The notes: a model not told the origin generated them from the letters alone. 64,000 bases of DNA from Acidobacteriota bacterium (GCA_027315185.1 DAHUYO010000006.1:395-64394), one strand, 5' to 3'. Numbered from the stretch's first letter, positions 8,115 through 54,735 are shown. Made by a program: numbers and translations.

Positions 8115-8190
8115 TGGCCACTTCCGCCCAACAGTATGCGCCTGCGGAAGGAGTCCACGGCGCGGGGGCGCAGGCGCCTGGCGCAGGCGC

Positions 8191-11862: not shown

Positions 11863-12011
11863 GGTCTCCCCTTTTTTACCCGCAAGGGAGCGATAGTTTC
11901 ACACCGCGCCGCGGAAAGCAATCCCAAGCCGCCGCGCCGGCGCGAAGATTGCGGAGCGGGCGGCCTTGCCTGTCATCTCGCTCACACTCCGCGTCCGCGC
12001 GGAGAAAACGC

Positions 12012-12100
12012 AACGGCCATCCTCGCGTGTCTGCCCGCCGCGCCGCACGAAGAATGTGGGACGGCCATCCTCGCCTGTCCGCACGCCCGGCGCCGCAACC
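12012..12100. repeat. Tandem ~49-bp degenerate direct repeat (ACGGCCATCCTCGCxTGTCxGCxCGCC...), with a weaker third copy at about 11958-11990
   Basis: Copy 1 starts at 12012 and copy 2 at 12061. About 35 of the first 40 positions are identical. Located in the divergent intergenic region between the GMC gene and the 12257 gene. Confidence 0.45.
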
Positions 12101-12256
12101 GCACGCCGTTAGGCAAATTCCCGCTGCGCGCATGCTCCGCTTGCGTTATGCTGGGCGCGCGGGCGACCTCGCCCGCAAATTCGTTCCAAGCTCGCGCAGC
12201 ATCCGGGCAAACAGAATATTTCGCACCAACATTTCGCATTCGGCGGAGGCGCAACG

Positions 12257-12919
12257 ATGGAGCAGGGAAGCAAACGAGCGATGCTACGGAACCGCAACAC
12301 TGACAATAAGGATGCGCAGGCCGGCCGGACGGCGCCGCCCGCTTCCGCCGGCGTCAGCCGCCGCCGCATGTTGGGGCAGATGGCCGGAGGTTTGGCCGGC
12401 GCCGGCCTCGCGTTCCCGCTCGCCGCCGAAGCCGCCGCCGTCGGCCGCCCCGCCCGTCCCCCGGCTCTGCCCCACGCCTCGCCGCTCGCCGCCGAAATCG
12501 CCGCGCGGCTGTGGGCCGCCCCGCCGCTCACCGCCTCCCAGCTGCGCGACGCCATCGGGCCGCAACGCACCTCCATTCTCGCCATCCTCGCCGCCGGCCG
12601 GGAGTTGACGCGGGAGCTGCAAATGCTGCGCATCGGGGGCTCGCGCGCCGATCCGCTCTGGGCGCCGGCGTCGTTCGTGTTTCCCGAGTTCCGCCCGGCT
12701 TTGGAGCATACCTCCCGCGACACCGCCGCCGCCGCGCTGGTCTCCAAATATCTGTGGCTGATGGTCGCCGCCACCGAGGACGACGCGGCCGCGTTTTTCG
12801 GCCCGCTATTTTCCCTCAGCCGCTTGCGCGGCCTGCTCGGCGCCTTGGTCGCCGCCGGCGCCCTGCTGCCCGCCTCCGTGGACGGCCGTCCCGGCTTCCA
12901 AGTCGCCCCCGGCGGCTAG
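12257..12919 (+). CDS. Tat-signal hypothetical protein; its 3' end is the target duplicated by the BREX island
   Basis: Twin-arginine-like leader 'SRRRMLGQMAGGLAGAGLAFPLAAEA'. Intact ORF. The last 283 nt recur at 27432-27714. Confidence 0.55.
   Translation: MEQGSKRAMLRNRNTDNKDAQAGRTAPPASAGVSRRRMLGQMAGGLAGAGLAFPLAAEAAAVGRPARPPALPHASPLAAEIAARLWAAPPLTASQLRDAIGPQRTSILAILAAGRELTRELQMLRIGGSRADPLWAPASFVFPEFRPALEHTSRDTAAAALVSKYLWLMVAATEDDAAAFFGPLFSLSRLRGLLGALVAAGALLPASVDGRPGFQVAPGG
12637..12919 (+). repeat. Left copy of the 283-bp direct repeat flanking the BREX cassette
   Basis: Aligned by eye to 27432-27714: three substitutions plus a GC/CG swap just before the shared TAG. The repeat ends exactly at the stop codon. 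Confidence 0.9.
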
Positions 12920-13159
12920 CAGGAATGGCCCTCGGTCCGGCCTTTTGCTCGGGCCCGCCACCCATCAGCGGCGCCCTGACCTTCGCTCCAGGCGTTGCTT
13001 GAAAGCGCGCCGGCCCTTCGGGTACAGTGACAGAGCAGCGCAGCCGGCGGCAACCAATCCCTCGGCGGTAAGGAGATAGAAATCGAGCACAACGCCGGCG
13101 GGCCTTCAGGGTCCACATACACCACCCGGCTGCAAAAGGGAGGGGCGCTGCTGACGGAC

Positions 13160-13876
13160 ATGCGCCTCTTGGTCCGCACCTGGGAGGAGCGCAACCCGGA
13201 CGACGCTGACCGCCGCAAGACGCTGTCCCGCGTGCTCGGCAAGGCGTCCGGCGCCCGCGCGGCGGATACCTACCGGCGGGCCTTCCTGCCGCGGTTCATC
13301 CAGGGCGACCCACCGCAAGCGTGGCGGATTCTCCAGCCACTCGAGTCGGCGGACCTCCCCGTGGAGATCGTCCGCCCCGTCTATTACTGGGTCACCGTAC
13401 GCAGCGAGCCGCTGTTGCGCGACTTCGTCCTGGACGTTCTCCCCGGCTACGCGGCCGCGCCGTACAGGCAGGTGCGCGCCGAGGACGCCTACGCCTGGAT
13501 CGGGCGCCGGCTCGGGCAAGCCGGCCGCCGGTGGTCCCCGACCGTCACGCTCAAGGTCGCCCGCGGCCTTTTGGCCGCCCTACGCGACTTCGGCATTCTC
13601 ACGGGTGGCGCGAAAAAATTCATCGCACCGGCCTACCTACCGCTGGAATCGTTCGCCTATCTCGCCTTCGCCCTCCACCGCCTCGGCGCCTCCGGGGCCC
13701 GGCTGCTGGCGCACCCGGATTGGCGCCTGTTCCTATTGCCATCCGGCGCGGTGGAGCAGCTTTTCTTGCGGGCGCACCAACATCATTATCTCAACTACCA
13801 AGCCGCTGGGCGTATCATCCGAGTTGACTTCACCGCCGGCAATTACCGGGAGATGGCCGATGCCCTCCAGCGTTGA
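13160..13876 (+). CDS. brxA: BREX protein BrxA (DUF1819); the true start is probably upstream of the first ATG (frame open from 13031)
   Basis: First position in the BREX operon. The frame upstream of the ATG encodes 'YTTRLQKGGALLTDMRLLV', which I recall as BrxA N-terminus-like. AGGAG lies at 13070-13074. Confidence 0.75.
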   Translation: MRLLVRTWEERNPDDADRRKTLSRVLGKASGARAADTYRRAFLPRFIQGDPPQAWRILQPLESADLPVEIVRPVYYWVTVRSEPLLRDFVLDVLPGYAAAPYRQVRAEDAYAWIGRRLGQAGRRWSPTVTLKVARGLLAALRDFGILTGGAKKFIAPAYLPLESFAYLAFALHRLGASGARLLAHPDWRLFLLPSGAVEQLFLRAHQHHYLNYQAAGRIIRVDFTAGNYREMADALQR

Positions 13877-14453
13877 AATCCATTTTCAGGAGCTCGAGCG
13901 CGACCTCGCCAGCCAGCCGATGCGCATCAGCGCCTATCACGACCTGCCCTTCGCCATGCTCGCCTACCCGGCCAACCAAGAGTTCGAGTGCCGTGCGCGC
14001 ATTCGCCAGCTGGCGTTCTCCCTCGAGGGGCAGGGGCGGCGCGTCACCTTCATCTCTCTGGCGGCGCTGGTGTGGCGGGCGATTGAAACGACGGAGGGGC
14101 TGGACGCCATCGCCGCGGAGGAGCGCCAGTTCGGCTTCGAGCGCGCGCAGGAGACGGTGAATCGCATCCTCTCCGACGCTGATTTCGCCCCCCTCGCCGG
14201 GCTGCTCCTGGCCCGCATCGCCGGGCTTGACCCCGCAAGGGACATCGTCTTCCTGGTCCGGGCGGGCGGGCTGGCGCCGGCCATCTACCGCCGCGCGCGG
14301 CTGCTCGATGAGCTTCACGGCCAGACCCGCGTGCCCCTAATTCTCTTCTATCCCGGCTCGCCCGGGAAGGGCGGCCTGCATTTCATGGGCCTGCCGCCGC
14401 AACGCTACGCGGACGTGTACAACTACCGCATCAAGATCTACGGGGAGCAATGA
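13860..14453 (+). CDS. brxB: BREX protein BrxB (DUF1788)
   Basis: Sequence 'ISAYHDLPFAMLAYPANQEFECRARIRQL...VTFISLAALVW...DIVFLVRAGGLAPAIYR...ILFYPGS...YNYRIKIYG'. The ATG at 13860 overlaps the brxA end by 17 nt. Confidence 0.85.
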   Translation: MPSSVEIHFQELERDLASQPMRISAYHDLPFAMLAYPANQEFECRARIRQLAFSLEGQGRRVTFISLAALVWRAIETTEGLDAIAAEERQFGFERAQETVNRILSDADFAPLAGLLLARIAGLDPARDIVFLVRAGGLAPAIYRRARLLDELHGQTRVPLILFYPGSPGKGGLHFMGLPPQRYADVYNYRIKIYGEQ

Positions 14454-17400
14454 TGGAAACCATCGGCGAACTCTTCGCCAAGCCGATCGGCCGAACGATC
14501 GAGGAAGTGATCAAGGTCGGCCAGTCGGACGAATCGGTTGTCAGGGACGAGATCGCGGAGTATGTCGTCACCGACTCCATCCGCGATCATTTCCGGGAAC
14601 TCTATAAGGCCTTCGCCGATGCGCCGGCGGAGCCTACCGAGGGCATCGGCGTCTGGCTCTCGGGTTTTTTCGGGTCCGGCAAGTCCTCCTTCGCCAAGAT
14701 CCTCGGCTACACCCTCGCCAACAGAAATTTGGGCGGCGCCACCGCCAGCGAACTCTTCAAGAGAACGGCCTCGGACGGCACGATCGAGGCGTTGTTGGAC
14801 CTGATCAACCGCAAGATCCCCACCGACGCCGTAATCTTCGACATCTCCATGGAACGCGGCGTGCGCGGCGCCGATCGCATCACCAGCATCATGTACAAGG
14901 CCCTTCTCCGGGGCCTGGGCTACGCCGAGGATTTCGACCTCGCCGCGCTGGAGATCACCCTGGAGGCCGACGGCAGGCTCGCCGCCTTCGAGAAGAAATT
15001 CAACGAGCTGAATCGCGAGCCGTGGGAAAAGCGGCGCAAGGTGGGCCTCGCCATCAACGAGGCGAGCCGCGCCCTTCACGTCATGGACCCGGAAAATTTT
15101 CCCGAGGCGGGCTCGTGGGCTAGGCAGGCCGCCGGACGTGCGGATATCACGCCCAACGAGCTCGCCCAGCGCTCATTTGAACTGATGGCCCGGCGCCGCC
15201 CGGGCCGCGCCCTGGCGTTCATCATTGACGAGGTCGGCCAGTGGGTCTCCCTCAGCGTGGATCGCATGCTGGATCTCATGGGGGTGGTCCAGGCATTCGG
15301 GGTCGAGGGACGGAACCGCGTCGCGGCCCGCAAGGCCCCGGCGCCGGCTTGGATCGTCGTGACCGCGCAGGAGAAGCTGAACGAGGTGGTCACCGCCCTC
15401 GACTCGAAAAAGATCGAGCTCGCGCGCCTTCAGGATCGGTTTCGCCATGCGATTGACCTGAAGCAGACCGACATCTCCCAAGTCACCAGGCAGCGCGTGT
15501 TGGACAAGACGGCAGCGGCGGCGAAGATGCTCGCCAAGATTTATCGGGACAATGAGCCGCGCTTGAAGGAATTCTGCTCCCTGGAGGCCACCGGCCGCGC
15601 CCGGCCCATCACCCAAGACGACTTTGTGGGGCTTTATCCCTATCTTCCCTACCAGATCGAGCTGTCCATTGATATCGTGTCCGGGCTTCGCTCCCGCCGC
15701 GGCGTGTTCCAGCACGTAGGCGGCAGCAACCGCACCATCATCAAGCAGGCCCAGCAAATGATGATCCACGACCGCACCCATTTGGCGAGGGAGCCGGTCG
15801 GTACTCTGGTCACGCTGGACAAGCTGTACGAGCTCCTTTTCGCCGGCAATCTCTTGCCTACCGAGGTGACGCGCGAGGTGGAGGCGGTCGCCACGCAGCT
15901 CCCCGGCAACGCCATGGCGCTCAAGGTGGCCAAGGCCATCGCGCTGCTGGAGGACGTGACACGCCTGCCCCGCACGGCGCGCAACATCGCCGTGGTCCTG
16001 CACCCCGCCGTCGGCACCGACTCGCTCCGCTCGGCGGTCGAGGCGGCGATCCAACAGCTGGAGAAAGCCCAGTTCATCCGCGAGGCCGACGATGGCTATA
16101 AGCTCCTGACCGCGCAGCAGAAGAACTGGGAACGCGAGCGGAACGGCCTGGAGCCCAAACCGGCGGAACGCAACGGCGTCATCCGCGGCCTGCTGCGCGA
16201 GGTCTTCGAGGAGCCGAAGCTCCGAGGCTACAAATTCCAGGGCTTGCGCGCGTTCCGCGTGGCCCTCGGCTTCGAGGGCGAGGCGATCGGAGACGACGGC
16301 GAGGTCGGCTTCAACGTCCTCCCAGCGGAGGGGCCGGAGGACCGCGCCCAGCGGGCTCAGGAGGCCAGAACGCAGAGCAACGGCGACCAGGAGCGGATTT
16401 TTTGGGTAGCCGACTTCGGCGGCCAGATCGGCCGCCAGATCGTCGAGCTGTTCCGCTCCAAACAGATGGTCGAGACGCGCTCGCTGGCCGCCTCGCAAAA
16501 GACGCTGTCCGCCGACGAGCAGGTCGCCTGGAACGACGAGAAGATCCGCCAGGACCGCATTCACCGCGCCTTGCGCGAGGCAATCACCGCCGCCGTTGCC
16601 GCCGGCGTCGGCTATTTCCAGGGAGTGGAGAAAAACGGCCCGTCCCTGGGCAAATCTCTGGCGGAGGTTCTCGCCGCGCTGTTGGACGCCGCCGTGCCCC
16701 TGCTCTACCCAATGCTGCAGATGGGAAGCCGTCCCGTCGCTGGGGACGAGGCGGAGAAGTTCCTGACCGCGGCGACGCTGAACGGGCTGCCCCCGATCTT
16801 CTACTCGGACGGCGACGGCCTCGGCTTGGTCGCCTCCCAGGCCGGCAAGTTCGTGCCCAACCTGGCCGCCCCAATCTGCAAGCAGGTGCTCGAATATCTC
16901 CGCCGCGAATATTCCTTCGGCAACAAGATCACCGGCAAATCCCTGGAGGCGCACTTTAGCGCCCCGCCCTACGGCTGGGCGCTCGACGTCCTCCGCCTGG
17001 TGATGGCCGTCCTGCTGCGCGGCGGCGGCGTCGAGGTGACCCACCAGGGGCGCAAATACCGCAACCATGCCGATCCCCCCAGCCGAGTTCCTTTCACCAG
17101 CAACACCGCCTTCCGCGCCGCCTCCTTCGCGCCTCGCGAAGCCCTCGACCTCAAGATCCTCGGCGAGGCCGTGCGCAAATACGAGGCGCTCACGGGCAAG
17201 GACGTGGACGTCGAGGAGAACGCCATCGCCCAAGCCTTCCAGAAGCTCGCCGGCGAGGATCTCCAGCGCCTGTTGCCGCTGGAGGCCCGTATGGGAGCCC
17301 TCCGCCTCCCAGGGGCGGATTGGGTTGCCGAGCAGCGCCAATACCTCGAGGCGATCCTCGCCATGACCACCGATGACTGCGTGAAAACCCTATCGGGGGA

Positions 17401-18091
17401 GGGGGAAACCTATAAGCAGGCGCGCGCGCGCATTGCCCGGCTGGAGGCGGCGACCACCGAAGCCAACATCGCCGCCCTGGCGGCGGCTCGCCGCGCCTTG
17501 GAGTCCCTGTGGTCGGTGCTCAGCGCCCAAGGCACGGACGCCGAGACCGCCGCCGCGGCGGAGGGGCTGGCGCGCGCGCTCGCCTCCGAGCGCTTCTACG
17601 ACGAGCTTGGGCCGATCCGCGACGCGGCGGAGCGCATCGCCCGCGCCTACCAGGTGGCCTACGAGCGCGTCCACCAGGCGCGCAGTGACGTCTACGGCCA
17701 GGCCCTCGATGCCGTCCGCGGCATGCCCGAGTGGGGCGCGCTCGCCCGGAACGCATCCGTTCCCGCCGAGACCCGGGATGCCCTTCTCGCCCCGCTCTCC
17801 AGCCGGGCCTGCGAGCTCCATTACCAGCCGGAATCGGGCCTCTGCGCGCGGTGCCGCGCCGGCGTGAGCCAGATGCTTGCCGAAGCCGAAGCCGTCGAAG
17901 GCGTCCGCGCCCAGGTGGCGCAACGGGTGCGCCAGGCCGCCATGCCGGAGCAGCGCATCGAACGCGTCCGCGTCGGCGCCCTGGTGGCGGGCCCGCTGGA
18001 GACCGAAAAGGACATCGAGGACGCCCTGGGCGCCCTGCGCGACCGCCTCAGACAGCTTCTCGCCGCCGGCGTCCGCATCGTGCTGGAGTAG
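14450..18091 (+). CDS. brxC: BREX P-loop ATPase BrxC/PglY
   Basis: 1213 aa. Walker A 'GFFGSGKSSFAKILGY' lies near the N-terminus. ATGA overlap with the brxB stop. Canonical third position in type 1 BREX. Confidence 0.9.
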   Translation: MMETIGELFAKPIGRTIEEVIKVGQSDESVVRDEIAEYVVTDSIRDHFRELYKAFADAPAEPTEGIGVWLSGFFGSGKSSFAKILGYTLANRNLGGATASELFKRTASDGTIEALLDLINRKIPTDAVIFDISMERGVRGADRITSIMYKALLRGLGYAEDFDLAALEITLEADGRLAAFEKKFNELNREPWEKRRKVGLAINEASRALHVMDPENFPEAGSWARQAAGRADITPNELAQRSFELMARRRPGRALAFIIDEVGQWVSLSVDRMLDLMGVVQAFGVEGRNRVAARKAPAPAWIVVTAQEKLNEVVTALDSKKIELARLQDRFRHAIDLKQTDISQVTRQRVLDKTAAAAKMLAKIYRDNEPRLKEFCSLEATGRARPITQDDFVGLYPYLPYQIELSIDIVSGLRSRRGVFQHVGGSNRTIIKQAQQMMIHDRTHLAREPVGTLVTLDKLYELLFAGNLLPTEVTREVEAVATQLPGNAMALKVAKAIALLEDVTRLPRTARNIAVVLHPAVGTDSLRSAVEAAIQQLEKAQFIREADDGYKLLTAQQKNWERERNGLEPKPAERNGVIRGLLREVFEEPKLRGYKFQGLRAFRVALGFEGEAIGDDGEVGFNVLPAEGPEDRAQRAQEARTQSNGDQERIFWVADFGGQIGRQIVELFRSKQMVETRSLAASQKTLSADEQVAWNDEKIRQDRIHRALREAITAAVAAGVGYFQGVEKNGPSLGKSLAEVLAALLDAAVPLLYPMLQMGSRPVAGDEAEKFLTAATLNGLPPIFYSDGDGLGLVASQAGKFVPNLAAPICKQVLEYLRREYSFGNKITGKSLEAHFSAPPYGWALDVLRLVMAVLLRGGGVEVTHQGRKYRNHADPPSRVPFTSNTAFRAASFAPREALDLKILGEAVRKYEALTGKDVDVEENAIAQAFQKLAGEDLQRLLPLEARMGALRLPGADWVAEQRQYLEAILAMTTDDCVKTLSGEGETYKQARARIARLEAATTEANIAALAAARRALESLWSVLSAQGTDAETAAAAEGLARALASERFYDELGPIRDAAERIARAYQVAYERVHQARSDVYGQALDAVRGMPEWGALARNASVPAETRDALLAPLSSRACELHYQPESGLCARCRAGVSQMLAEAEAVEGVRAQVAQRVRQAAMPEQRIERVRVGALVAGPLETEKDIEDALGALRDRLRQLLAAGVRIVLE

Positions 18092-18093
18092 CC

Positions 18094-18930
18094 ATGGAGT
18101 CGCTGAACCTTTTCAACCAAAACTTCGCGGTCGTGGAGAGCCTTCTCCAGCTCTACCAGCTCTTCGGCGGCCTCCGGGAAGCGGAGCCGAGCGAACAACT
18201 CCGCCTCGCGGTCTGCGCCGCCTGGGGAGATCCCGGTTCGGCGCTGGTGCGCCACGCCCGCAACGATCGGGCCATGGTGATGGCCCGCGCCGTGGCTGTC
18301 ATTCCCCCGTCCCTCACCAGCCAACGCGGGCTGGATTTTCTCCTCCGCCAGGCGGTCGTCGTGGTCTGCGGCTCGCTCGAAGCGTTCTTTTGGGATTCCC
18401 TCCGGGAGAACGTGCTCACCATCGTCCGCGCCCGCGGCTCCAGGTCGGACAGATCCCTCACCGACCTGACGCTCACCTTGGGCGATTACATGTCCATCCT
18501 CCAGTACGCGGACCCGGACCTCCGCCTGCAACAGATCATCCTCAAGAACTTCGAGAGGCGCACGCTCTACGACACCGCGTCGATCGAAAAGATCACCCAA
18601 GTGCTGACCGTCGAAAGGTTCTGGGACCAGGTGGCGGAGAAATGCGGGAAAAAGCCGCAAGACATGCGCGCGGCGATCGCCGACCTCATCAGCCGCCGCA
18701 ACCTCATCACCCACCGCGCCGACCGGCCCGAGCGGGATGAGCCGTCCGACGAGCTCGGGCTCCGGCCTATCTCATTCGCCTGGACCAGCCTGCGCGTGCA
18801 GGAGGCCAGGGCGCTCGTCGCCGCCGGCGCGGAGCTGATGGAACATGCCCTGCGCCGCCTGCAGGCGCAGATCCGGGCCAGCGAGGAACAGATGGAGGCG
18901 CGGCGGGCCGCCGAGCGGGCGTCCGCCTAA
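18094..18930 (+). CDS. Accessory 278-aa protein inserted between brxC and pglX; putative HEPN-like (RNxxxH) nuclease
   Basis: ATG lies 3 nt after the brxC stop and the gene ends 15 nt before pglX. Appears helix-rich by inspection. 'ISRRNLITHRAD' contains the R-N-x3-H motif (R202...H207, nt 18697-18714). Confidence 0.5.
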   Translation: MESLNLFNQNFAVVESLLQLYQLFGGLREAEPSEQLRLAVCAAWGDPGSALVRHARNDRAMVMARAVAVIPPSLTSQRGLDFLLRQAVVVVCGSLEAFFWDSLRENVLTIVRARGSRSDRSLTDLTLTLGDYMSILQYADPDLRLQQIILKNFERRTLYDTASIEKITQVLTVERFWDQVAEKCGKKPQDMRAAIADLISRRNLITHRADRPERDEPSDELGLRPISFAWTSLRVQEARALVAAGAELMEHALRRLQAQIRASEEQMEARRAAERASA

Positions 18931-18945
18931 AGGAAAGGTTGCACC

Positions 18946-21900
18946 GTGGATCCGAATACCGTTGCCGCGCTGCGTAGTTTTACCTTGGACGCCAGGGCCT
19001 TCCTCGAGCAGGAGGCCAGCGAACAGCTCGAAGGCCTTTATGGCTGGATCCCTGGCGGCGACATCAGCCCGGCCAAGCACTACCCCGCCCTCACGGCCCA
19101 CGCGGAGGCCAAGGAGACCCGCCGCCGCCTGGAGCAGTTCCTCGCCGACGAGGGCGCCGCCGGCCTCAACCCCAAGGCGGCGCGCGCCAAGCTGGTGAAG
19201 GAAGCCGCCTTCACTTGGCTCAACCGCTTTGTCGCCTTCAGGCTGATGGAGGGCAGCGGCTTGATCAAGCAGACCGTCTCGCGCGGCGCCGAATCCAACG
19301 CCTTCAAGCTCTGGCTCACCGAGGCGGCCAACGCGCCCTGGCTGGCGGAGTACGAGCGCGGCGACCTCCCCAAGGACGAGATCGGCGAGGGTCCCCGCGC
19401 ACGCGCCTATCGCCGGTTCCTGCTCGCCCAATGCGCCAGGCTGGCGGAGGAGATCCGCGTCCTTTTCGACCCCGACGACCTGCCCAGCCGCCTTTTTCCC
19501 CGCGCTCCCGCCCTCCAGCGCCTGGTCGCCGCCGCCGGCGAAGAGGCCCTCGCGCCGGCCTGGGCCCCGGGCGGCGAGGAGGCCGTGGGCTGGATTTACC
19601 AATCGTTCAACGCTCGCGAGCTGGAGAGCGCCTTCCGCGAAGCGCGCACCTCCGGGAGGAAGTTTCAGAAGGAAGACATCGCCTCGGTCACGCAGCTGTT
19701 CACGCCACGCCTGGCGGTCAGTTTTCTGGTCGAGAACACGCTTGGACGCCTATGGCTCGAGATCCACCCCGACACCAGGCTGGCTCCCGGCTGGACCTGC
19801 CTCGCGCAGCCGCCCGGCGCCGCCGGGGCGACGCCCCGGCTCGCCCGAGAAATCACCTTCATGGACCCCGCGTGCGGCACAATGCATTTCGGGCTTGTCG
19901 CCTTTGACCTTTTCGCCGCGATGTACCAGGAGGAGATCGCCCGTGCCGGCGAGCCCGGCTGGCCTGCCACCCCGTCGGTCGCCAGCCAGCAGGAGATCCC
20001 CGCCGCCATCATCGCCAACAACCTCTTCGGGGTCGACATAGACCTACGGGCGGTCCAGCTGGCGGCACTGGCGCTTTACCTCCGCGCCAAACGGCTGGGC
20101 CCAGGCGCCGTCATACGCGACACGAACCTCGCTGTAGGCGGTGTCGAGGTCCTCGGCGGGCGCCGCCTCGAGAGGTTCCTCGCCGCAGCGGGCTTCGACG
20201 AGCCCGCCTACGAGGAGCTGACCCGCGCCGCATGGTCGGAGCTCGAGGCCGCGGAACAGCTCGGCAGCCTCCTCCGCCCGGAGCGGATCGTGGAAAGCGC
20301 CGTGGGATCGGCGAAGAAAGCGCGCGGGCCGGAACTGCCTCTCTTCGATGGGCTCTGGCAGAACCTCGCCGCGGCGGTCGCAAAGTCGCTCGATGAGTTC
20401 GCGCGCGGGGAGGCGGCCGCGGGCCGGCAGGCGACCTTCTTCGCGGGCGAGGGCGCGAGGGGCCTTCGCCTCCTCGACCTTCTTGCCCGCCAGTACGACG
20501 TCGTCGCGACCAACCCGCCGTACATGTCAAGCCGCAAGATGAACCCGACGCTGAAGGGCCTGGTCGCCAAGCATTTCCCATCCGCGAAAGGCGACCTGTA
20601 CGCGGCCTTCGTCGAGCGCTGCCTCGAGCTCGCCGGCCAGGGGGGCCGAGTCGGTATGCTCTCGATGCACTCTTTCATGTTTATCAGCTCCTACGAGCCG
20701 CTGCGTGGGCGGATCGCGAAGCGGGCCGCGATAGAAGCCCTCGCGCATTTCGGGCCGGGGCTCTTCGCGGTGGGCAACCCGGGCACCCTGCAGACCGCTG
20801 CGTACGCCCTGCGCCGCGAGCCGGACGCCGAGCGGCGCAAAGAGGCGGTGGGCACCTATTTCCGGCTGGTAAAAGAGCGGGACGCGCAGGCCAAGCAGAA
20901 GGCTTTCGAGGAATCGCTCGTCCGCCTCAAAAGCGGCCAGCCGGATCCGCGCGTCTTTCATTACCGCCAAGCCGACTTCGACGCCATCCCCGGCAGCCCC
21001 TGGGTCTATTGGATCACCCCCGGCCTGCGCCGCCTGTTCAAAGATTCGCCCCAGATGGCCTCGCTCTGCCAGCCGAAGATTGGAATGAGGACCGGGGACA
21101 ATCCCCGGTTCCTGCGCTATTGGTGGGAGGTCGGGCGCGGCGCCGTGGGCTTTGGGGCGGCCGACGCCAAGGGCGCGCTGCGGTCGGGCAAGGGGTGGTT
21201 CCCCTATATGAAGGGCGGCGCCTTCCGCAGGTGGTACGGGAACCAGGATCGGGTCGTCCGCTGGGCGGGCGACGGCGAGGAGATCAAGGAGAACACGCGG
21301 AGGCAATACCCGAGCCTCGGGGAGAACCTTGGGTGGAAGATCAGCAACGAGGGGTGCTATTTCCGCCGCGGCGTGACCTACTCCTACCTGACCGCCGGCC
21401 GTTTCAGCGCCCGGCTTTCTCCTGGTGGGTTCATTTTCGACGTCGCCGGTTCGTCGCTCTTCCCGGACGACGTGCCGCCCACCCTCGCGGTGATGAACTC
21501 GGAATTCGCGGCCTACGCGCTGTGCCTGATCAACCCCACCGTGAATTTCCAGGTCGGGGACATCGCCAGGCTGCCGATGCCGAGGCTATCGAGCCAGGCC
21601 CTCGAGCGCCTGGTCAATGAGGCCATCGCCCTGGCTCGCGCCGACAGCGAGGAGGACCAGACCACCTACGACTTTATCGCCCCGCCCGCCTGGCCCGGCG
21701 GCGCGGCTGACGTCGCCGCGCGCCACACGCGATTGGCGGAGATTGAGAGGGAACTGAACGAGGAGGTGTATCGCCTTTACGGCGTCGGCGCCGAGGACCG
21801 CGCGGCAATTGAGCGCGAGCTGGCGAAAAACGCCGGCGCGCCGGACGAGCGCGGCGAGGGCGAAGACAATGGCGAGGAGGGCGAAGACGGCGGCGAGGAG

Positions 21901-22791
21901 GCGGAGGCGGCAGGGGCCGAGGGTATGGGGCTGGCGCCGGAGGAATTGGCGCGGCGTTGGATCAGCTACGCTGTCGGCGTCGTGCTCGCCCGGTTCGACG
22001 TGGGAAAGGATGGTGGGTTGGGCCGTGGCCGCTTCCCGCCAAAAACCAACGACGCCCTGCGGCAGCTAGCCGCGCCCCGCGGCCTGCTGGTCCAGGACCC
22101 AGGCCATCCCGACGACTTCGCCCATCGCGTGCTTGCCGCCCTGCGCGTCATGCTCGGCCCGGACGCAGCCGACGACGCCGTCCACGCCGCCACCGGCACC
22201 GCCCGCCCGGCGGAAGACGCCCTGCGGGATTACCTGCCGCGCGCCTTCCTGAAATGGCATATTCAGGCGTATCGCAAACGCCCGGTCTATTGGCTGCTGG
22301 AGTCGCCCGCCCGCGCCTACGGCGTTTGGCTGTTTCATGAGCGGTTGGCGAAAGACACCCTGCTGCGCGTGCAGGCCGATTACCTGAATCCGAAAATCCG
22401 CCGCCTGGAGGGCGAGCTGAAGGGGATCAAGCAAAAGGAGGAGAACGCCGCCGGAACCGAAAAACGGCGGCTGAAATCCCAGGCGGACACCTGCATGGAC
22501 CTGCTCAACGACCTGCGCGAATTTCAGAAACGCCTCGACGACGCGGTCCAGGGCGGCTATGCGCCCCACCGCGACGACGGCGTCCTGCTGAACCTGGCGC
22601 CGCTCCGGGAACTGATCCCGGCGTGGTCGGCGGAGCCCCGCAAGGCATGGCAGGCGTTGCAGAAGGGCGAGTACGATTGGGCGCGCCAAGCGATGGCGTA
22701 TTGGCCGGACCGCGTGCGGGCGAAGTGCAAGAACAACCGCTCGTTCGCCATCGCCCACGGCCTTGAAAAGGCGGAGGCGGCCGGTGGCTAG
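18946..22791 (+). CDS. pglX: BREX N6-adenine DNA methyltransferase PglX
   Basis: 1281 aa. Catalytic 'VVATNPPYMSSRK' (NPPY). GTG start. Canonical position. Confidence 0.9.
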   Translation: MDPNTVAALRSFTLDARAFLEQEASEQLEGLYGWIPGGDISPAKHYPALTAHAEAKETRRRLEQFLADEGAAGLNPKAARAKLVKEAAFTWLNRFVAFRLMEGSGLIKQTVSRGAESNAFKLWLTEAANAPWLAEYERGDLPKDEIGEGPRARAYRRFLLAQCARLAEEIRVLFDPDDLPSRLFPRAPALQRLVAAAGEEALAPAWAPGGEEAVGWIYQSFNARELESAFREARTSGRKFQKEDIASVTQLFTPRLAVSFLVENTLGRLWLEIHPDTRLAPGWTCLAQPPGAAGATPRLAREITFMDPACGTMHFGLVAFDLFAAMYQEEIARAGEPGWPATPSVASQQEIPAAIIANNLFGVDIDLRAVQLAALALYLRAKRLGPGAVIRDTNLAVGGVEVLGGRRLERFLAAAGFDEPAYEELTRAAWSELEAAEQLGSLLRPERIVESAVGSAKKARGPELPLFDGLWQNLAAAVAKSLDEFARGEAAAGRQATFFAGEGARGLRLLDLLARQYDVVATNPPYMSSRKMNPTLKGLVAKHFPSAKGDLYAAFVERCLELAGQGGRVGMLSMHSFMFISSYEPLRGRIAKRAAIEALAHFGPGLFAVGNPGTLQTAAYALRREPDAERRKEAVGTYFRLVKERDAQAKQKAFEESLVRLKSGQPDPRVFHYRQADFDAIPGSPWVYWITPGLRRLFKDSPQMASLCQPKIGMRTGDNPRFLRYWWEVGRGAVGFGAADAKGALRSGKGWFPYMKGGAFRRWYGNQDRVVRWAGDGEEIKENTRRQYPSLGENLGWKISNEGCYFRRGVTYSYLTAGRFSARLSPGGFIFDVAGSSLFPDDVPPTLAVMNSEFAAYALCLINPTVNFQVGDIARLPMPRLSSQALERLVNEAIALARADSEEDQTTYDFIAPPAWPGGAADVAARHTRLAEIERELNEEVYRLYGVGAEDRAAIERELAKNAGAPDERGEGEDNGEEGEDGGEEAEAAGAEGMGLAPEELARRWISYAVGVVLARFDVGKDGGLGRGRFPPKTNDALRQLAAPRGLLVQDPGHPDDFAHRVLAALRVMLGPDAADDAVHAATGTARPAEDALRDYLPRAFLKWHIQAYRKRPVYWLLESPARAYGVWLFHERLAKDTLLRVQADYLNPKIRRLEGELKGIKQKEENAAGTEKRRLKSQADTCMDLLNDLREFQKRLDDAVQGGYAPHRDDGVLLNLAPLRELIPAWSAEPRKAWQALQKGEYDWARQAMAYWPDRVRAKCKNNRSFAIAHGLEKAEAAGG

Positions 22792-25363
22792 GGTTTCGGG
22801 CGAGCTGCGGCGCATAATCGAGGCCCAGCTCGCCGCCCGCGGCATCGTGGTCTGGTACGACGCGGAGAGGGCCTACGAGCAGTGGGTTGGGTCCCTCGCG
22901 CTGCCCGACGCGCCGGTGCTGCGGTACGAGTCCAGCTTTTTCGCGCTAAAAGCCGCGCTGGAGCCGTTCCTCGAATGGGTCGCCGCCGACGGCCGGCCCG
23001 ATCCCGGCGGCCACGTCCCGCGCCGCGTCCTGGTCTACGTTCCGCTCAGCCAGGACCAGTCGCATTACGCCCTGGTCGAAGCCGAAACCGCCGGCGCGGT
23101 CCTGCAGCCCGGCGCGCAGCCGCGGCAAGACACGCGGCTGAAGACCATCGCCGAGCGGGTATTCCGGGAAGTTGACCCCCAGCAGGCGGCGGAAGTTGGA
23201 CTCCAGGTGGAACGCGGCGCCTACGGCCTCGCGGAGCTGGACCGGATGGCGGAGCAGCAGGGCTCCGCCGCCGACGCGGGACTCCGCCTGATTTTCAACA
23301 CGGCCTCGCCCACCGAGGTGGCGCTGGCCTTTGCCCAGGATGGCCGCTACGATGCCGCCATCACCGCCAAGCAGGCGATGCCGCCGCTGGCCGCTCTGCT
23401 GGAGGCGGAGTTCGGCGTCGCCCTGAAGCCCAGCACCGCTCCGGCAGCCGCCCGCGCCGAGGTCCGCCGGCGCCTGCTGGCTGGCGATCTTCTGGCCGGC
23501 ATCCCGTCCGCGCAGCGCCCCCGCCAGCTCACGGCGCTTGCTCCGGGGGACGAGGCGCAGCTCGGGCGCTGCCGCCAGGTCTGCGAACATTGGCGCAACC
23601 GCGTGGACGCGCGGGAAGAATATTCCCACGCGGCCCGCCAGGTTGAGGCGGAGGTCCGCTTCCCATCTCTGTCCATCCCCGTGGCCGCCCTGGCGGCGAG
23701 TGAAACGTTTCCATCCGCCGAGGAAGTGCTGCTGGCGGAGGCGGAGGGTCGGATCACCGCCGGCGAGCTCCGCCCGGCGCTGGAGCTGGCGGAGGCTCGT
23801 CTCCGCTACTTTTGGGCGACCGCTGAGCCCGCCTTCGGCCTACAGTGGGCGTTCCTCGCGTCGGCCTGCCGCGCCGGACTTCTCGCCTCCACCGTCCGCG
23901 CTGCGCTGAAGCCGGCCCAGCGCGACGCCGACGGCCTTCTGGCGGCTTACGCGGCGGGCCCCGAGCCCTGGTGCCTGTTGGATACGTATTATCGCCAGAT
24001 GGAATCCTACGACGCCCAGCGCCGCGAAAGAGCCGCGGGGGACCGCGACGGGCTGGACCGCGCCGTTCGCCAGACCCGCCAAACCTACACCGAGGCCGTG
24101 GCGGCGCTGGCTGAGGCCTGGACCGACGCGCTCGCCGCCTCCGCATTCCGCCCCCAAGGCGCGCCGCGCCAAGACCGCGTGTACGCCGACTACGTCGCGC
24201 CGGCTCTCCGCGAAGGCCGCCGGACGGCTTATTTCCTCGTAGACGCCTTGCGTTTCGAGATGGGCCGGGAGCTGGCGTTAAGCCTCGAAAGGGACTTTGA
24301 GGCGGCCCTGTTCCCGACGCTGGCCGTCGCGCCGACGGTTACCGAGGTGGGCATGGCGGCACTGCTCCCCGGCGCCGAGCAGGGGATGGCGCTGGCCAGC
24401 AAGGCGGAAAAGCTAGCCGTGCGGCTGGACGGAGCGGTCCTGCGCGACCGCGCCGGGCGCCTGGCCTACATGCAAAGCCGCGTGGAGGCAAAGCTGCTGG
24501 CGCTCAAGATGTCGGAGATTTCCCGCGCCAAGCGCAAAATTGAGGAGGCCAGCCCCGGCCTGCTGCTGGTCACCTCGCAGGAAATTGACAAGCAAGGAGA
24601 GATGGGCGATGACGACGACGGCGCCCGGGAATACATGAACAATATGCTGGCCAGGCTCAGCCAGGTCATCTCCCGCCTGGCGCAGCTCGGATTCGAACAC
24701 TTTGTCATCGCCGCCGACCACGGGCACTTGTACGGCGAGGCCGGCGAGGCCGGCCTCAAGATGGATCCGCCCGGCGGCCAGACCCTGGCGCTGCGCCGCC
24801 GCGTTTGGGTTGGCCGGGGCGGCGATTCCGGCGCCGGATTCCTCCGTCTCTCGTCCCGCGACCTGGGTCTGGACGGCGAATGGGAGGCGGCGTTTCCGCG
24901 GGGCCTGGGGCTGTTCAAAACCCGCGGCGGTTCGGCGACCTATTTTCACGGCGGGCTGTCCTTGCAGGAAATGCTGATCCCGGTGCTCGTGCTCAAGGCC
25001 AGGGCCCGGCAGCCCGCGGCGCGCGGGGCGCGCGTGGAGCTCGCGCTCGCGCGCGGCAAGGTCACGACGCGATTCTTTTCGCTGACCCTGACGTATCGCG
25101 CCGAGGGGTTGTTCGGCGCGGACGCGGTGGAAGTCAGGCTGGCCGTGACCGCCGGCAGGAGGGAAGCCGGCGCGCCGGTGATGGCCGCGTACGGCTTCAA
25201 CGAGGCTAGCCGGGAGGTTCGCCTCCTGAGGGACCAGCCCAATCCGGTCACCGTCGGCGTGGCCGAGGAGGGAATCACGCGCCTGACCGTTACCGTGCAG
25301 GATGCGGCCACCCAAGTGGAGCTAGGCCGCCTGGAGAACATTGCAGTCGAGATCGCGATCTAG
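22763..25363 (+). CDS. pglZ: BREX alkaline-phosphatase-superfamily protein PglZ (start TTG 22763 or GTG 22784)
   Basis: N-terminal 'IVVWYDAERAY'. PglZ-domain region 'YFLVDALRFEMGREL ... FVIAADHGHLY'. Overlaps the pglX stop. Confidence 0.85.
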   Translation: MKRRRRPVARVSGELRRIIEAQLAARGIVVWYDAERAYEQWVGSLALPDAPVLRYESSFFALKAALEPFLEWVAADGRPDPGGHVPRRVLVYVPLSQDQSHYALVEAETAGAVLQPGAQPRQDTRLKTIAERVFREVDPQQAAEVGLQVERGAYGLAELDRMAEQQGSAADAGLRLIFNTASPTEVALAFAQDGRYDAAITAKQAMPPLAALLEAEFGVALKPSTAPAAARAEVRRRLLAGDLLAGIPSAQRPRQLTALAPGDEAQLGRCRQVCEHWRNRVDAREEYSHAARQVEAEVRFPSLSIPVAALAASETFPSAEEVLLAEAEGRITAGELRPALELAEARLRYFWATAEPAFGLQWAFLASACRAGLLASTVRAALKPAQRDADGLLAAYAAGPEPWCLLDTYYRQMESYDAQRRERAAGDRDGLDRAVRQTRQTYTEAVAALAEAWTDALAASAFRPQGAPRQDRVYADYVAPALREGRRTAYFLVDALRFEMGRELALSLERDFEAALFPTLAVAPTVTEVGMAALLPGAEQGMALASKAEKLAVRLDGAVLRDRAGRLAYMQSRVEAKLLALKMSEISRAKRKIEEASPGLLLVTSQEIDKQGEMGDDDDGAREYMNNMLARLSQVISRLAQLGFEHFVIAADHGHLYGEAGEAGLKMDPPGGQTLALRRRVWVGRGGDSGAGFLRLSSRDLGLDGEWEAAFPRGLGLFKTRGGSATYFHGGLSLQEMLIPVLVLKARARQPAARGARVELALARGKVTTRFFSLTLTYRAEGLFGADAVEVRLAVTAGRREAGAPVMAAYGFNEASREVRLLRDQPNPVTVGVAEEGITRLTVTVQDAATQVELGRLENIAVEIAI

Positions 25364-25375
25364 GAGCCGAAACCA

Positions 25376-27427
25376 ATGGCGCTGGGCACGGAGAAAACAA
25401 CGACGGATCTGGACCAAAAGGCGTCAGCGGTCTTCGCCGGCAAGGTGGTCCGCAAGGACTTGGTGCGCAAGGTCAAGGTCGGCGCCAACGTGCCCGTGTT
25501 CGTGCTCGAGTACCTGCTGGGCAAGTATTGCGCCACGGACGATCCCCAGGCGATCGAGGCCGGCCTGCGGGTGGTGAACTCCACCCTGGCGGAAAATTTC
25601 GTCCGGCCCGACGAGGCCAACAAGGCGCAGTCATTCGTTCGCGAGAAGGGAACCCATTCCCTGATTGACAAGGTCAAGGTCCGATACCTTTCCGACGACG
25701 ACAAATATTGGGCCGAGCTCGTGAATTTCGGCCACCGCTTCGTCCATATCCCCGACCAATACGTCCGCCAATTCGACCGCCTGCTCATGGGCGGGGTCTG
25801 GGCTCAGGTAAAACTCCGGCACCAGTACGACGATTCCGCCAGTGGCAAGAAGAGCCCATTCCGGATCGAAGAACTCCAGCCGATCCAGGTGGCCACCTTC
25901 AGCCTGGACGACTACCGCTCCGCCCGCGCCGCGTTCTCAACCGAGGAGTGGATTGACCTTTTGATCCGTTCCGTCGGCTTGGAGCCGACGGGCTTCGACC
26001 ACCGCCTCAAGCTCCTTCTGCTCACCCGTTTGCTCCCCCTCTGCGAGCCCAACTTCAACCTTGTCGAGCTGGGGCCGCGCGGCACCGGCAAGTCCTACGC
26101 CTATCAGGAGCTGAGCCCCTACGTCATCCTGCTCACCGGCGGCACCACCGTAGCCAATCTGTTTTACAACATGGCCACAAACCGGATGGGCCTGGTCGGA
26201 CTCTGGGACGCGGTGGCCTTCGACGAGGTCGCCGACCTGCAAAAGATGCCCAAGGAAGTCGTCACCACCTTGAAGACGTACTGTGAATCAGGGTCCTTCG
26301 CGCGGGGCAAGGAGTCCCTAACCGGCCACGCCTCAATCGCTCTATTCGGCAACACCAACCAGCCCGTCGAGGTGATGGTGCGCTCTTCCCACCTGTTCGT
26401 CCCGCTTCCCGACGCCATCCGGGAAGACCTCGCCTTTCTGGATCGCCTGCACTTCTACCTGCCCGGATGGGAAATACCCAAAATGCGGGTGGAATTCTTC
26501 ACCGACCACTACGGCTTCGTGGTGGACTACTTGGCCGAGGCGTTGCGCGAGCTGCGGCGGCACAACTTCACCGAGCTGCTCGACCGCCACTACGCGCTCG
26601 GCGCCCATTTGAACGCTCGCGACGTCAAGGCCGTACGAAAGACCGTGGCTGGCCTGGCCAAGCTGATTTACCCGAGCGGCGACGTGACCAAGGAGGGATT
26701 GGGCGAGATCGCCGAGCTGGCGCTGGAGGGCAGGCGCCGGGTGAAGGAGCAGCTCAAGAAGATGGGCTCGTTCGAATACCACCAGACCTCGTTTTCGCTG
26801 ATCGACGCCGAGACCAGGGAGGAGAAATATGTCGGTGTGCCGGAAGAGGGGGGAAGGAATCTAATCTCCGCGGATCCGCTCGCCCCAGGGTCGGTCTACA
26901 CCGCGGCCGTGGATTCCGAGGGCAAGGTGGGCCTTTACCGGCTGGAGGTGGGCTGCTCGCCGGGCACCGGAAAACTGAAAATCAGCGGCGCGGCCGATGG
27001 AGAGATGAAAGAGGCGATCCAGCGCGCGTTCGCCTACCTGCGCGGGCACAAGGTGGAGATGGGCATCGCGCAGGCCCTCGACACGACGGATTTCCACGCC
27101 GAGGCGATTGACCTGCTCGGCAACTACGTCCCCTGCGACGCCGGCGTCGCGCTCGTGGTCGCTGTCTATTCGGCCCTCAAGAAACAACCGGTCCTGCCCG
27201 CGCTCCTCGTGCTCGGCGACCTGAGCATCCAGGGCAACATCAAGCCTACCCACTCGCTCGCCGAGCCCCTACGCATCGCCATGGACAACGCCGCCCGCCG
27301 GGCGCTGATCCCGCTGGAGAACAAGCGCCATTTCCTTGAGGTCCCCGCCGATATCGTCGAGCGCGTGGATCCCATCTTCTTCGGCGACCCCATGACCGCA
27401 GCGCTCAAGGCCCTGGGAATGAACTGA
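25376..27427 (+). CDS. brxL: BREX Lon-like protease BrxL
   Basis: N-terminus 'FAGKVVRKDLVRKVKVGANVPVFVLEYLLGKYCATDDP'. AAA-like 'LGPRGTGKSY'. C-terminal Lon protease-like domain. Last gene of type 1 BREX. Confidence 0.9.
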   Translation: MALGTEKTTTDLDQKASAVFAGKVVRKDLVRKVKVGANVPVFVLEYLLGKYCATDDPQAIEAGLRVVNSTLAENFVRPDEANKAQSFVREKGTHSLIDKVKVRYLSDDDKYWAELVNFGHRFVHIPDQYVRQFDRLLMGGVWAQVKLRHQYDDSASGKKSPFRIEELQPIQVATFSLDDYRSARAAFSTEEWIDLLIRSVGLEPTGFDHRLKLLLLTRLLPLCEPNFNLVELGPRGTGKSYAYQELSPYVILLTGGTTVANLFYNMATNRMGLVGLWDAVAFDEVADLQKMPKEVVTTLKTYCESGSFARGKESLTGHASIALFGNTNQPVEVMVRSSHLFVPLPDAIREDLAFLDRLHFYLPGWEIPKMRVEFFTDHYGFVVDYLAEALRELRRHNFTELLDRHYALGAHLNARDVKAVRKTVAGLAKLIYPSGDVTKEGLGEIAELALEGRRRVKEQLKKMGSFEYHQTSFSLIDAETREEKYVGVPEEGGRNLISADPLAPGSVYTAAVDSEGKVGLYRLEVGCSPGTGKLKISGAADGEMKEAIQRAFAYLRGHKVEMGIAQALDTTDFHAEAIDLLGNYVPCDAGVALVVAVYSALKKQPVLPALLVLGDLSIQGNIKPTHSLAEPLRIAMDNAARRALIPLENKRHFLEVPADIVERVDPIFFGDPMTAALKALGMN

Positions 27428-27431
27428 CGCC

Positions 27432-27714
27432 GGGCTCGCGCGCCGATCCGCTCTGGGCGCCGGCGTCGTTTGTGTTTCCCGAGCTCCGCCCGGCTTTGGA
27501 GCATACCTCCCGCGACACCGCCGCCGCCGCGCTGGTCTCCAAATATCTGTGGCTGATGGTCGCCGCCACCGAGGACGACGCGGCCGCGTTTTTCGGCCCG
27601 CTATTTTCCCTCAGCCGCCTGCGCGGCCTGCTCGGCGCCTTGGTCGCCGCCGGCGCCCTGCTGCCCGCCTCCGTGGACGGCCGTCCCGGCTTCCAAGTCG
27701 CCCCCGGCGCGTAG
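27432..27714 (+). repeat. Right copy of the 283-bp direct repeat
   Basis: See 12637-12919. Confidence 0.9.
27432..27714 (+). pseudogene. Orphan 3' fragment (last ~93 codons) of the 12257-12919 gene
   Basis: Same reading frame and same stop as the full-length copy, but no 5' part. The 27472 'ATG' ORF in the track is just this fragment. Confidence 0.7.
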
Positions 27715-27806
27715 CGCCTCGGCCGCCGCGTTCAGCCTGCATTAACGCCGCCTCCCCTAGCTTTAAGGCTGGCGCAATTGCGCCGGCAATTGGAGGAATG
27801 GAAGCA

Positions 27807-28163
27807 ATGAAATCCCTAGTTTCGTCAACGTGCCGCGCCGCAGGGCTGATCCTGGGCGCGGGCCTGCTCATGTCGCTACCGCTGTTGGCCCAAAGCCAGA
27901 GCCAGCTCCGCGCGCAGGCCAAGATCGCCTACCGCCAGGCCCGCCACACCGCCCTGGTGAAGGAGCCCGGCCGCATCCTGAGCCATGAGTTGGAGCATGA
28001 GGACGGGCGCGTGATCTACACCTTCACCATCCACAACCGCCATGGCTACCATGAGGTCAACGTGGACGCCCGCACCGGCCGCTTGCTCGAGGACAGCCGC
28101 GAAAGCCGCGCCGAGGCGCTCGATGATATTCGCGAGTCCCGCCACGACCGTCAGCGGCACTAA
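27807..28163 (+). CDS. Small secreted PepSY-domain protein
   Basis: Signal peptide 'MKSLVSSTCRAAGLILGAGLLMSLPLLAQS'. PepSY-like 'AKIAYRQARHTALVKEPGRILSHELEHEDGRVIYTFTIHNRHGYHEVNVDARTGRLL'. GGAGG at 27792-27796 favours the ATG at 27807 over 27798. Confidence 0.65.
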   Translation: MKSLVSSTCRAAGLILGAGLLMSLPLLAQSQSQLRAQAKIAYRQARHTALVKEPGRILSHELEHEDGRVIYTFTIHNRHGYHEVNVDARTGRLLEDSRESRAEALDDIRESRHDRQRH

Positions 28164-28214
28164 TCGCCGCCAACCGGCGGGGCCCGAATGTCCTGCACGC
28201 CCCGCCGGTTTTCG

Positions 28215-28835
28215 TTACTTCCGCGCCAACTTCCGGCCGTTGCCGGCGCCGTGCTGCTGGGCCCACGCCAGCAGCGCGCGCGCCGCCTGGCCGCGATGGG
28301 AAAAGCGCGCCTTGACCTCCGCCGGCAGTTCGCCGAACGCGCAGCCCGCCGCCGGGGAATAAAACAGCGGATCGTAGCCGAACCCGTTGGCTCCCCGCTC
28401 GGCGCTCAGAATGGTTCCCTCGGCCCGCCCGGTGAACGTCGCCGCCACCCGTCCCTGCCGCGCCACCGCCAGCACGCAGACAAACGCTGCTTGCCGCCGC
28501 GCGCTGGGCACGCCCTCCAGCCGCCGCAGCAACAGCGCGTTATTGTCCTCGTCGCTGGCGCCCTCGCCGGCAAACCGCGCGGAATAGATCCCCGGCGCGC
28601 CATTCAGCGCCGCCACCTCCAACCCGGAATCATCCGCCAGTACCCACTCCTCGCCGCCCCAGGCGCGGCTGTACTCCGCGGCTTTTTTGCGCGCATTGGC
28701 GGCAAAGCTGTCCCCATCCTCGATCACCGGCGGCAACCGGGCGAAACCCGGCAGCAACGCCACCTCTAGGGCCGGGGCCATGCCGGCGAAGTCCCGCAGC
28801 TTGCCGGGATTGCCGGACGCCAGCCAGACCCTCAT
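28215..28835 (-). CDS. rdgB: Non-canonical purine NTP pyrophosphatase (RdgB/HAM1)
   Basis: '[16 protein letters not shown]...' and 'GFGYDPLF' motifs. 4-nt ATGA overlap with the rph stop. Confidence 0.9.

Positions 28836-54659: not shown

Positions 54660-54735
<76 letters not shown>

Follow-up and report, generated by a model that had tools for sequence, protein, structure and literature searches.

How does a defence system come to reside between two copies of the end of a resident gene, with no gene for mobility beside it? This question is raised by a 64,000-nucleotide stretch of Acidobacteriota DNA (GCA_027315185.1, DAHUYO010000006.1:395-64394), hereafter referred to as the window, in which a bacteriophage exclusion (BREX) operon of type 1 is bracketed by a 283-bp direct repeat. 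The repeated sequence is the 3' end of a 268-codon gene, here called the core gene, that is linked to mutL in relatives. On balance, and with modest confidence, the locus is taken to represent capture of the BREX cassette by host recombination, without a recombinase encoded by the element, a joint reading that covers more than one route to the same product.

Pairwise alignment and a repeat search of the whole window recover one two-copy direct repeat:

12637-12920, plus strand: direct repeat, left copy (core-gene nucleotides 525-807 plus 1 nucleotide)
27432-27715, plus strand: direct repeat, right copy (core-gene nucleotides 525-807; read as the 3' remnant of the resident core gene, at its native site)

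The copies are spaced 14,795 bp apart and are identical at 279 of 284 positions, and chance cannot give an identity of 98% across 284 nucleotides. They differ at 12676 (C/T, synonymous), 12689 (T/C, Phe/Leu), 12824 (T/C, synonymous) and at the adjacent pair 12915-16 (GC/CG, Gly/Ala), with exact-match runs of 39, 12, 134, 90 and 4 nucleotides. Homology stops one base past the shared TAG. The left edge of the cassette is exactly the stop codon of the core gene, and its right edge lies 4 nucleotides beyond the stop codon of brxL (TGA at 27425-27427, followed by CGCC and then the right copy). A preliminary description of this DNA, which had recorded near-identical copies apart from three substitutions and a GC/CG swap, and a right copy starting 4 nucleotides after brxL, is correct on both points. 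The window contains no Ns, and both copies are well internal to the contig. With the exception of FG-GAP repeats within one gene, the 283-bp repeat is the sole long repeat of the window; that gene (216-3728, minus strand) encodes a 1170-residue FG-GAP/VCBS-repeat protein with ASH/Ig-like domains, and is the source of repeat families D1 and D3-D5. A hairpin resembling a terminator, GGCCGCGTTTTTCGGCC with a T-rich tail, is present in both copies of the direct repeat, at 12787-12803 and 27582-27598 on the plus strand. Because it lies within the right copy, the hairpin sits about 155 nucleotides 3' of brxL, where it could by chance provide termination of the BREX operon.

The undisturbed form of the site can be seen in five relatives in which the core gene is intact, at 70-96% nucleotide identity: two Terriglobales metagenome-assembled genomes (MAGs; L001 and L002), a farmland metagenome (L004), and two Acidobacteria MAGs (L009 and L010). 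The genome scan for the core-gene family used N-terminal patterns, a design that places the truncated copies of the window itself outside its reach; it did bring empty sites to light. The gene order in the relatives is hisS-aspS-mutL, the core gene, a PepSY gene and/or a convergent Ham1 gene, RNase PH, ferredoxin, and a non-ribosomal peptide synthetase (NRPS). None of the five carries BREX at the core-gene site, and they are therefore regarded as empty sites. The preliminary description had called for such a comparison, and for a look at other cargo between the same repeats; all five relatives have the core gene followed by PepSY or Ham1, and a small PepSY module does vary among them, but no other defence cargo was found.

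From 27433 on, the window is colinear with L010, at 94-96% identity over more than 9 kb, and is about 92% identical to L004 and L009, PepSY included. The native flank begins with two genes:

27807-28163, plus strand: PepSY-domain gene, neighbour on the native downstream side (found in L004 and L009, lacking in L010, L001 and L002)
28215-28835, minus strand: Ham1/RdgB-family dITP/XTP pyrophosphatase gene, native flank (followed, like its counterparts in L010 and L001, by RNase PH, ferredoxin and NRPS)

As read from the sequence, what remains of the resident core gene is the right copy, still at its native site; that copy had been labelled an orphan, a term that its downstream synteny contradicts. 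The PepSY module spans 27716-28232 in the window, 4058-4552 in L004 and approximately 1805-2311 in L009, and is absent at 10804-10810 of L010; in relatives that lack it, the 3' ends of the core gene and Ham1 overlap by their stop codons. Its presence or absence is bounded exactly by the core-gene stop codon, which is also where the BREX leader starts, and this spot is one that has been struck more than once. The gene ends in GGC TAA in L010, in GGC TAG in the left copy, and in GCG TAG in the right copy.

In the case of the left copy, it had been thought that the repeat completes an intact gene with a twin-arginine (Tat) signal. The open reading frame (ORF) in question is instead an in-frame fusion of two unrelated gene fragments:

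12257-12919, plus strand: chimeric ORF of 220 codons (disjoint protein match sets, P0007-10 versus P0001-6; tblastn)
12257-12448, plus strand: 5' fragment of a gluconate 2-dehydrogenase subunit 3 family gene (alignments to L099)
12432-12919, plus strand: left fragment of the core gene, nucleotides 320-807 of 807 (blastn to L010, L009 and L004; alignment)
12432-12448, plus strand: junction J1, a 17-nucleotide GC-rich microhomology (three-way alignment and ungapped comparison)

In protein searches with this ORF, hypothetical proteins of 268 residues match the C-terminal ~72% only (P0001, 93% identical), and gluconate-2-dehydrogenase-subunit-3 proteins of ~244 residues (PF13618) match the N-terminal 30% only (P0007, 94%). 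Residues 1-62, including the Tat signal, are of subunit-3 family origin, and the remainder corresponds to the C-terminal 158 residues (~111-268) of the 268-residue mutL-linked protein, which has no signal peptide. At the nucleotide level, positions 12173-12448 are 98.2% identical to the subunit-3 locus L099, and homology to the core gene of L010 starts at 12432. The microhomology at J1, CCGCCGCCG[T/C]CGGCCGC, is common to both parent genes, and both reading frames are kept across it; since the window has the T of the subunit-3 type, the crossover falls within the last 7 nucleotides of the microhomology, which ends at 12448. The first 319 nucleotides of the core gene, and mutL, are absent from the window, and the core gene is no longer intact at this locus. 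The view that an island inserted at the 3' end of a gene stands in so far as BREX is an insertion relative to the relatives, but a second breakpoint, J1, lies 205 bp upstream of the left repeat copy, and a simple island of that kind does not describe the locus.

Left of 12432, the window (MacB, DUF302, Nramp, a GMC oxidoreductase and the 5' end of the subunit-3 gene) is colinear with a different locus, L005. With a left flank that resembles L005 and a right flank that resembles mutL loci, the cassette is placed at the join of two neighbourhoods. The last complete gene of the left flank is:

10183-11862, minus strand: GMC oxidoreductase gene (Pfam; blastn synteny with L005)

Exact look-ups of the chimeric ORF, the GMC oxidoreductase and the PepSY protein found none on record. 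A search with a synthetic reciprocal chimera, consisting of the core-gene N-terminus and the subunit-3 C-terminus, returned only the two native families, a result to be read with the possibility that genes of this kind are listed by NCBI as pseudogenes. Between the GMC and subunit-3 genes of L005 lie approximately 9 tandem copies of a GC-rich intergenic repeat of ~101 nucleotides (7762-8717), an array that is annotated there as a 419-residue 'gene'. In the window, the same repeat occurs as three degenerate units at 11938-12087 and as a solitary copy at 50212-50344 (minus strand), and it looks like a repetitive extragenic palindromic (REP) element or a miniature inverted-repeat transposable element (MITE).

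The linkage of the core gene to mutL is kept even in relatives that are 26-37% identical (L012 7999-10732, L014 7950-10834), and suggests a conserved functional tie to mismatch repair. As to function, full-length members have no significant Pfam match (HTH_20 at E 0.11 and DUF7346 at E 0.3 are below threshold), and no NCBIfam, PADLOC or PDB-sequence match. An AlkZ-like match of the 80-residue right fragment (27.9 bits, borderline) was set aside as unreliable, as it is not reproduced by full-length members.

Between the repeats lies a type-1 BREX system whose six core genes are in canonical order on one strand, all six being matched by both Pfam and PADLOC (870 bits for BrxC with PADLOC, 638 for PglX, 357 for PglZ and 934 for BrxL):

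12921-13159, plus strand: BREX leader of ~240 nucleotides (no homologue in the empty-site relatives)
13160-13876, plus strand: brxA (Pfam, PADLOC; 100% identical in the Logan contig L008)
13860-14453, plus strand: brxB (Pfam, PADLOC)
14450-18091, plus strand: brxC, encoding a PglY-like ATPase (PADLOC, 870 bits)
18094-18930, plus strand: HEPN_RiboL-PSP gene of 278 codons, auxiliary and not core BREX, between brxC and pglX
18946-22791, plus strand: pglX (brxX), methyltransferase (Pfam, PADLOC)
22784-25363, plus strand: pglZ (Pfam, PADLOC)
25376-27427, plus strand: brxL, Lon-like (Pfam, PADLOC)

Within the leader are a sigma-70-like site (12999-28) and an AAGGAG box (13070-75), and from about 13031 the leader is in the brxA frame and encodes a conserved N-terminal BrxA extension. 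The frame at 13031-13159, upstream of the brxA ATG at 13160, includes the motif YTTRLQKGGALL, which is conserved in BrxA relatives of 284 residues; the same frame has no ATG, GTG or TTG, the AAGGAG box being followed by ATA/ATC codons. From these features, brxA may use a non-canonical start, or its N-terminus may be shortened here.

The preliminary description had placed only BREX genes between the repeats, a statement that the non-BREX HEPN_RiboL-PSP gene overturns. No PADLOC model matched this gene. It occupies the same position in the two closest cassettes (L097 5527-6327 and L098 12411-13265; BrxA 72-74% identical), and probably serves this BREX subfamily as an auxiliary RNase effector. 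Standalone HEPN effectors are known within BREX loci (PMC12839542), and the present system shares with type-1 BREX carrying embedded auxiliary effectors the canonical brxA-brxB-brxC-pglX-pglZ-brxL arrangement plus a standalone HEPN gene; it differs in that the HEPN is of the RiboL-PSP type, and is otherwise ordinary. A metagenome scan based on BrxL gave 578 relatives, the best at 80% identity, with 10-kb flanks that fall short of brxA. For BrxA, after the identical Logan contig, the next closest homologues are 72-74% identical and lie in unrelated contexts (L098, for instance, beside DruA/kinase genes), and no core-gene fragment is found beside these closest homologues.

Is the cassette foreign, and is the repeat foreign with it? 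In tetranucleotide usage the cassette correlates with its flanks at 0.94, whereas twelve flank chunks of the same size correlate with the rest at 0.990-0.994; by this measure the cassette is foreign. The left and right flanks correlate at 0.989 and so belong to one genome type. Of the comparisons of island and flanks that had been proposed earlier, the k-mer profile does separate the two, but GC skew does not; nor does GC content. In the case of the repeat, both copies are about 94% identical to L010, or about 6% distant, and 98-99% identical to each other, and each bears its own derived changes relative to outgroups. Copies that are equally far from L010 and 1-2% apart argue for a recent duplication of resident sequence, rather than one imported with the cassette. 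The earlier suggestion of a recent event is borne out by these distances, and one of the differences, at 27619, is absent from an independent assembly, which points to a very recent origin.

Direct repeats of the 3' end of a gene raise the question of an integrase. Neither sense nor antisense ORFs of 12916-27427, nor the main ORFs of the window, contain recombinase or transposase domains. The nearest tRNA in the window is at 54660, no Rfam family matches within 11000-29000, and terminal inverted repeats are lacking: exact inverted matches between the two ends of the insert are at most 9 nucleotides long. The earlier claim that integrase, transposase and tRNA are all lacking is thereby upheld by domain searches of ORFs and a tRNA search. 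With respect to transposons and insertion sequences, transposase and terminal inverted repeats are absent and the duplication is 283 bp rather than short. With respect to integrase islands, flanking direct repeats at the 3' end of a protein gene are present, 283 bp long and ending at the stop codon; two other defining features are lacking, as neither the interval nor the main ORFs of the window encode a recombinase beside an attachment (att) site, and no intact target gene is restored, the left copy being a 5'-truncated fragment fused to another gene.

An island that carried an integrase, inserted site-specifically at the core-gene 3' end, and later lost its integrase module is a very unlikely source of this arrangement. 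It would draw on repeats of a protein-gene 3' end that finish at the stop codon, a classic signature, and on the existence of empty sites in relatives. However, non-genic DNA inside the repeats amounts to 240 nucleotides of leader, partly brxA-coding, plus 4 nucleotides, leaving no room for remnants; an integrase is found nowhere in the 64 kb; the cassette is foreign and yet the adjoining repeat is native-like, at 98-99% over 283 nucleotides, far beyond an att core; and the target is truncated and chimeric. Integrative elements such as e14 and phage 21 in icd insert at a protein gene's 3' end and supply a substitute for it. The locus resembles them in its direct repeats of a protein-gene 3' end, which run up to the stop codon and include an orphan 3' fragment on one side, and differs in having no integrase or excisionase, a long resident-like repeat with foreign cargo, and a target that is not intact. 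A reading of the e14/icd type, in which the island brings a replacement 3' end, is a poor fit, as a compositionally foreign cassette stands between repeat copies that both look native. Taken together, the lack of a recombinase gene or of room for one, the long native-like repeat, and the unrestored target argue against an element-encoded recombinase.

Could the arrangement instead have arisen during assembly? The independent evidence is a Logan contig, L008 (SRR13766252_10013), of 14,821 bp, which corresponds to 12889-27709 of the window with one mismatch, at 27619 (the left-type T). This contig confirms both inner joints, from the repeat end through the leader to brxA and from brxL to the repeat; the outer junctions, J1 and the passage from the right copy to PepSY, are seen only in the contig studied here. 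The ends of the Logan contig overlap by 26 nucleotides, such that it represents one period plus 26 nucleotides. Its opening 31-mer is the earliest to include the G of TAG, and the contig stops just before the GC/CG difference, end points from which graph branch points can be deduced (k = 31), as a closed circle would overlap by k-1 = 30. We infer that both continuations are present in the SRR13766252 sample, possibly along with an L010-like TAA allele, which hints that BREX-bearing and empty-site strains co-occur there. The k-mer content itself fits both a repeat-BREX-repeat arrangement and a circle plus an empty site.

An artefact would take the form of a single-copy chromosome, in which the fusion ORF runs into PepSY, and a separate 14,795-bp BREX molecule, circular or located elsewhere, or of a path through a strain mixture, or of a chimera of two neighbourhoods. 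Such an origin is considered quite unlikely. The source is a metagenome-assembled contig of 83.7 kb, the Logan contig has overlapping ends as a circle would give, the longest identical run in the repeat is 134 nucleotides (225 in the Logan version) and could confuse graphs of short k, and the outer junctions are without independent support. Against these points stand the halt of the Logan contig at the GC/CG difference, with an overlap of 26 rather than 30 nucleotides and both continuations deduced in the sample, and the absence of any replication function from a BREX-only circle. In addition, internal differences between the copies are phased consistently with brxL in two assemblies, the repeats are contig-internal and free of Ns, the J1 microhomology (7-17 nucleotides) is too short for a k-mer misjoin, and the two flanks have one tetranucleotide signature.

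What, then, would capture by host recombination entail? In outline, the last 283 nucleotides (525-807) of the core gene would have been duplicated recently within the lineage, and a horizontally acquired type-1 BREX operon, with its own promoter-like leader, would have ended up between the copies. Illegitimate joints of the microhomology type may link the cassette to the chromosome; alternatively, a circular intermediate carrying the 283-bp homology may have entered by a single crossover of the Campbell type, the simplest way to duplicate the homology. Either route, or both combined, would leave homology on both sides of the cassette. The J1 fusion, in which the 3' 60% of the core gene is joined onto the first ~62 subunit-3 codons, would most simply be one end of an inversion or translocation. 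A plain deletion was rejected as its origin because, given the gene order in relatives, it would remove hisS, aspS and mutL; the protein search for the reciprocal chimera leaves the balance for an inversion neutral.

Single crossovers of the Campbell type generate insertion-duplications, as with suicide vectors. The locus has the corresponding topology of homology, insert and homology, and the insert plus one repeat is a 14,795-bp circular permutation that matches the Logan contig. Unlike an insertion made with vectors, there is no vector or replicon backbone, and a circle of only BREX and 283 bp of the core gene would need an origin of its own. A parallel for the illegitimate route is found in rhs and type VI secretion system (T6SS) effector-immunity loci, where orphan 3' fragments have been attributed to homology-facilitated illegitimate recombination (HFIR; Kirchberger et al. 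2017, PMC5361080). Features that the locus would share are recombinase-free capture, a homology anchor in a conserved gene, an illegitimate far joint, and displaced orphan 3' fragments. Those loci usually displace or delete resident DNA and have divergent orphan ends, whereas the orphan here is a near-identical duplicate, and the combination of an anchor with an upstream joint would be unusual for HFIR.

Several considerations weigh against capture by host recombination. More than one recombination route gives the same product, and the outer junctions are known from this contig only, and searches of the protein collection found neither the chimeric ORF nor its reciprocal. For two or three illegitimate joints to arise independently within 15 kb is an uncomfortable coincidence, unless they stem from one complex event. 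Microhomology is seen at J1, which, unlike the brxL::repeat and stop-codon::leader joints, has both parent sequences to compare. Finally, the site is seen in five relatives only, none closer than ~96%, and with no cargo beyond the PepSY module.

One such complex event would be replication-based template switching, resembling microhomology-mediated break-induced replication (MMBIR), in which all three novel joints are made at once. Here, a broken subunit-3 end would prime at core-gene nucleotide ~320 on a BREX-bearing template, copying would continue past the end of the gene and across the leader and the BREX genes, as far as 4 nucleotides beyond brxL, and a switch to resident nucleotide 525 would then lead into PepSY. 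This is unlikely. Three novel junctions do cluster within 15 kb, J1 lies in a 17-nucleotide GC-rich microhomology with the reading frame preserved, the duplicated sequence is native, and a recombinase is absent. However, the event needs a near-identical strain with BREX directly after the same gene, and none was found in the homologue and genome scans; J1 is the one joint of the three at which microhomology can be compared; and the product, being non-reciprocal, would lose essential genes unless a translocation is involved.

If host-recombination capture is the mechanism by which BREX was gained, the locus may also provide a means of loss. From the topology, exactly 14,795 bp would be lost or released as a circle if RecA mediated a crossover between the two copies. 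A further step would be to regard BREX plus 283 bp of core gene as a recombinase-free mobile cassette, with the borrowed piece of the core gene acting as a portable homology 'att site'. Under this proposal, which we regard as distinctly improbable, RecA would release a 14,795-bp circle, and after transfer the homology would re-insert the defence system in close relatives; a Logan contig of one period plus 26 nucleotides is compatible with such a BREX circle.

There is good documentation of hotspots without mobility genes whose content turns over through recombination in the core genes on either side, and their tendency to adjoin repair genes has been noted (Oliveira et al. 2017, PMC5635113); defence hotspots have likewise been described in E. 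coli and P. aeruginosa (PMC10121019, PMC10250203). The locus is like the mobility-gene-free hotspots in that a defence system lies between core genes, without integrase, transposase or tRNA, at a site that is empty in relatives; a second small variable module, PepSY, uses the same boundary, and the native neighbour is mutL. It is unlike them in that a double crossover in flanking genes leaves no duplication, whereas a 283-bp duplication brackets the insert here; moreover, another neighbourhood has taken the place of the upstream core flank, and no alternative defence cargo is found in the five relatives. The mode of residence is a known way of gaining defence genes, of which this is a well-resolved example, and not a new kind of system.

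For annotation, the locus is a caution, as a plausible open 'Tat-signal protein' beside an island combines pieces of two genes that are unrelated to each other. Integrases, or double crossover in conserved flanks, account for the majority of defence islands. The present locus keeps the scars of a third route, in the form of a native-sequence duplication and microhomology joints, and represents a concrete case of a 14.5-kb BREX operon entering, and possibly leaving, a chromosome without a mobility gene. If the improbable mobile-cassette proposal were true, defence cassettes could spread within a species without an element-encoded enzyme.

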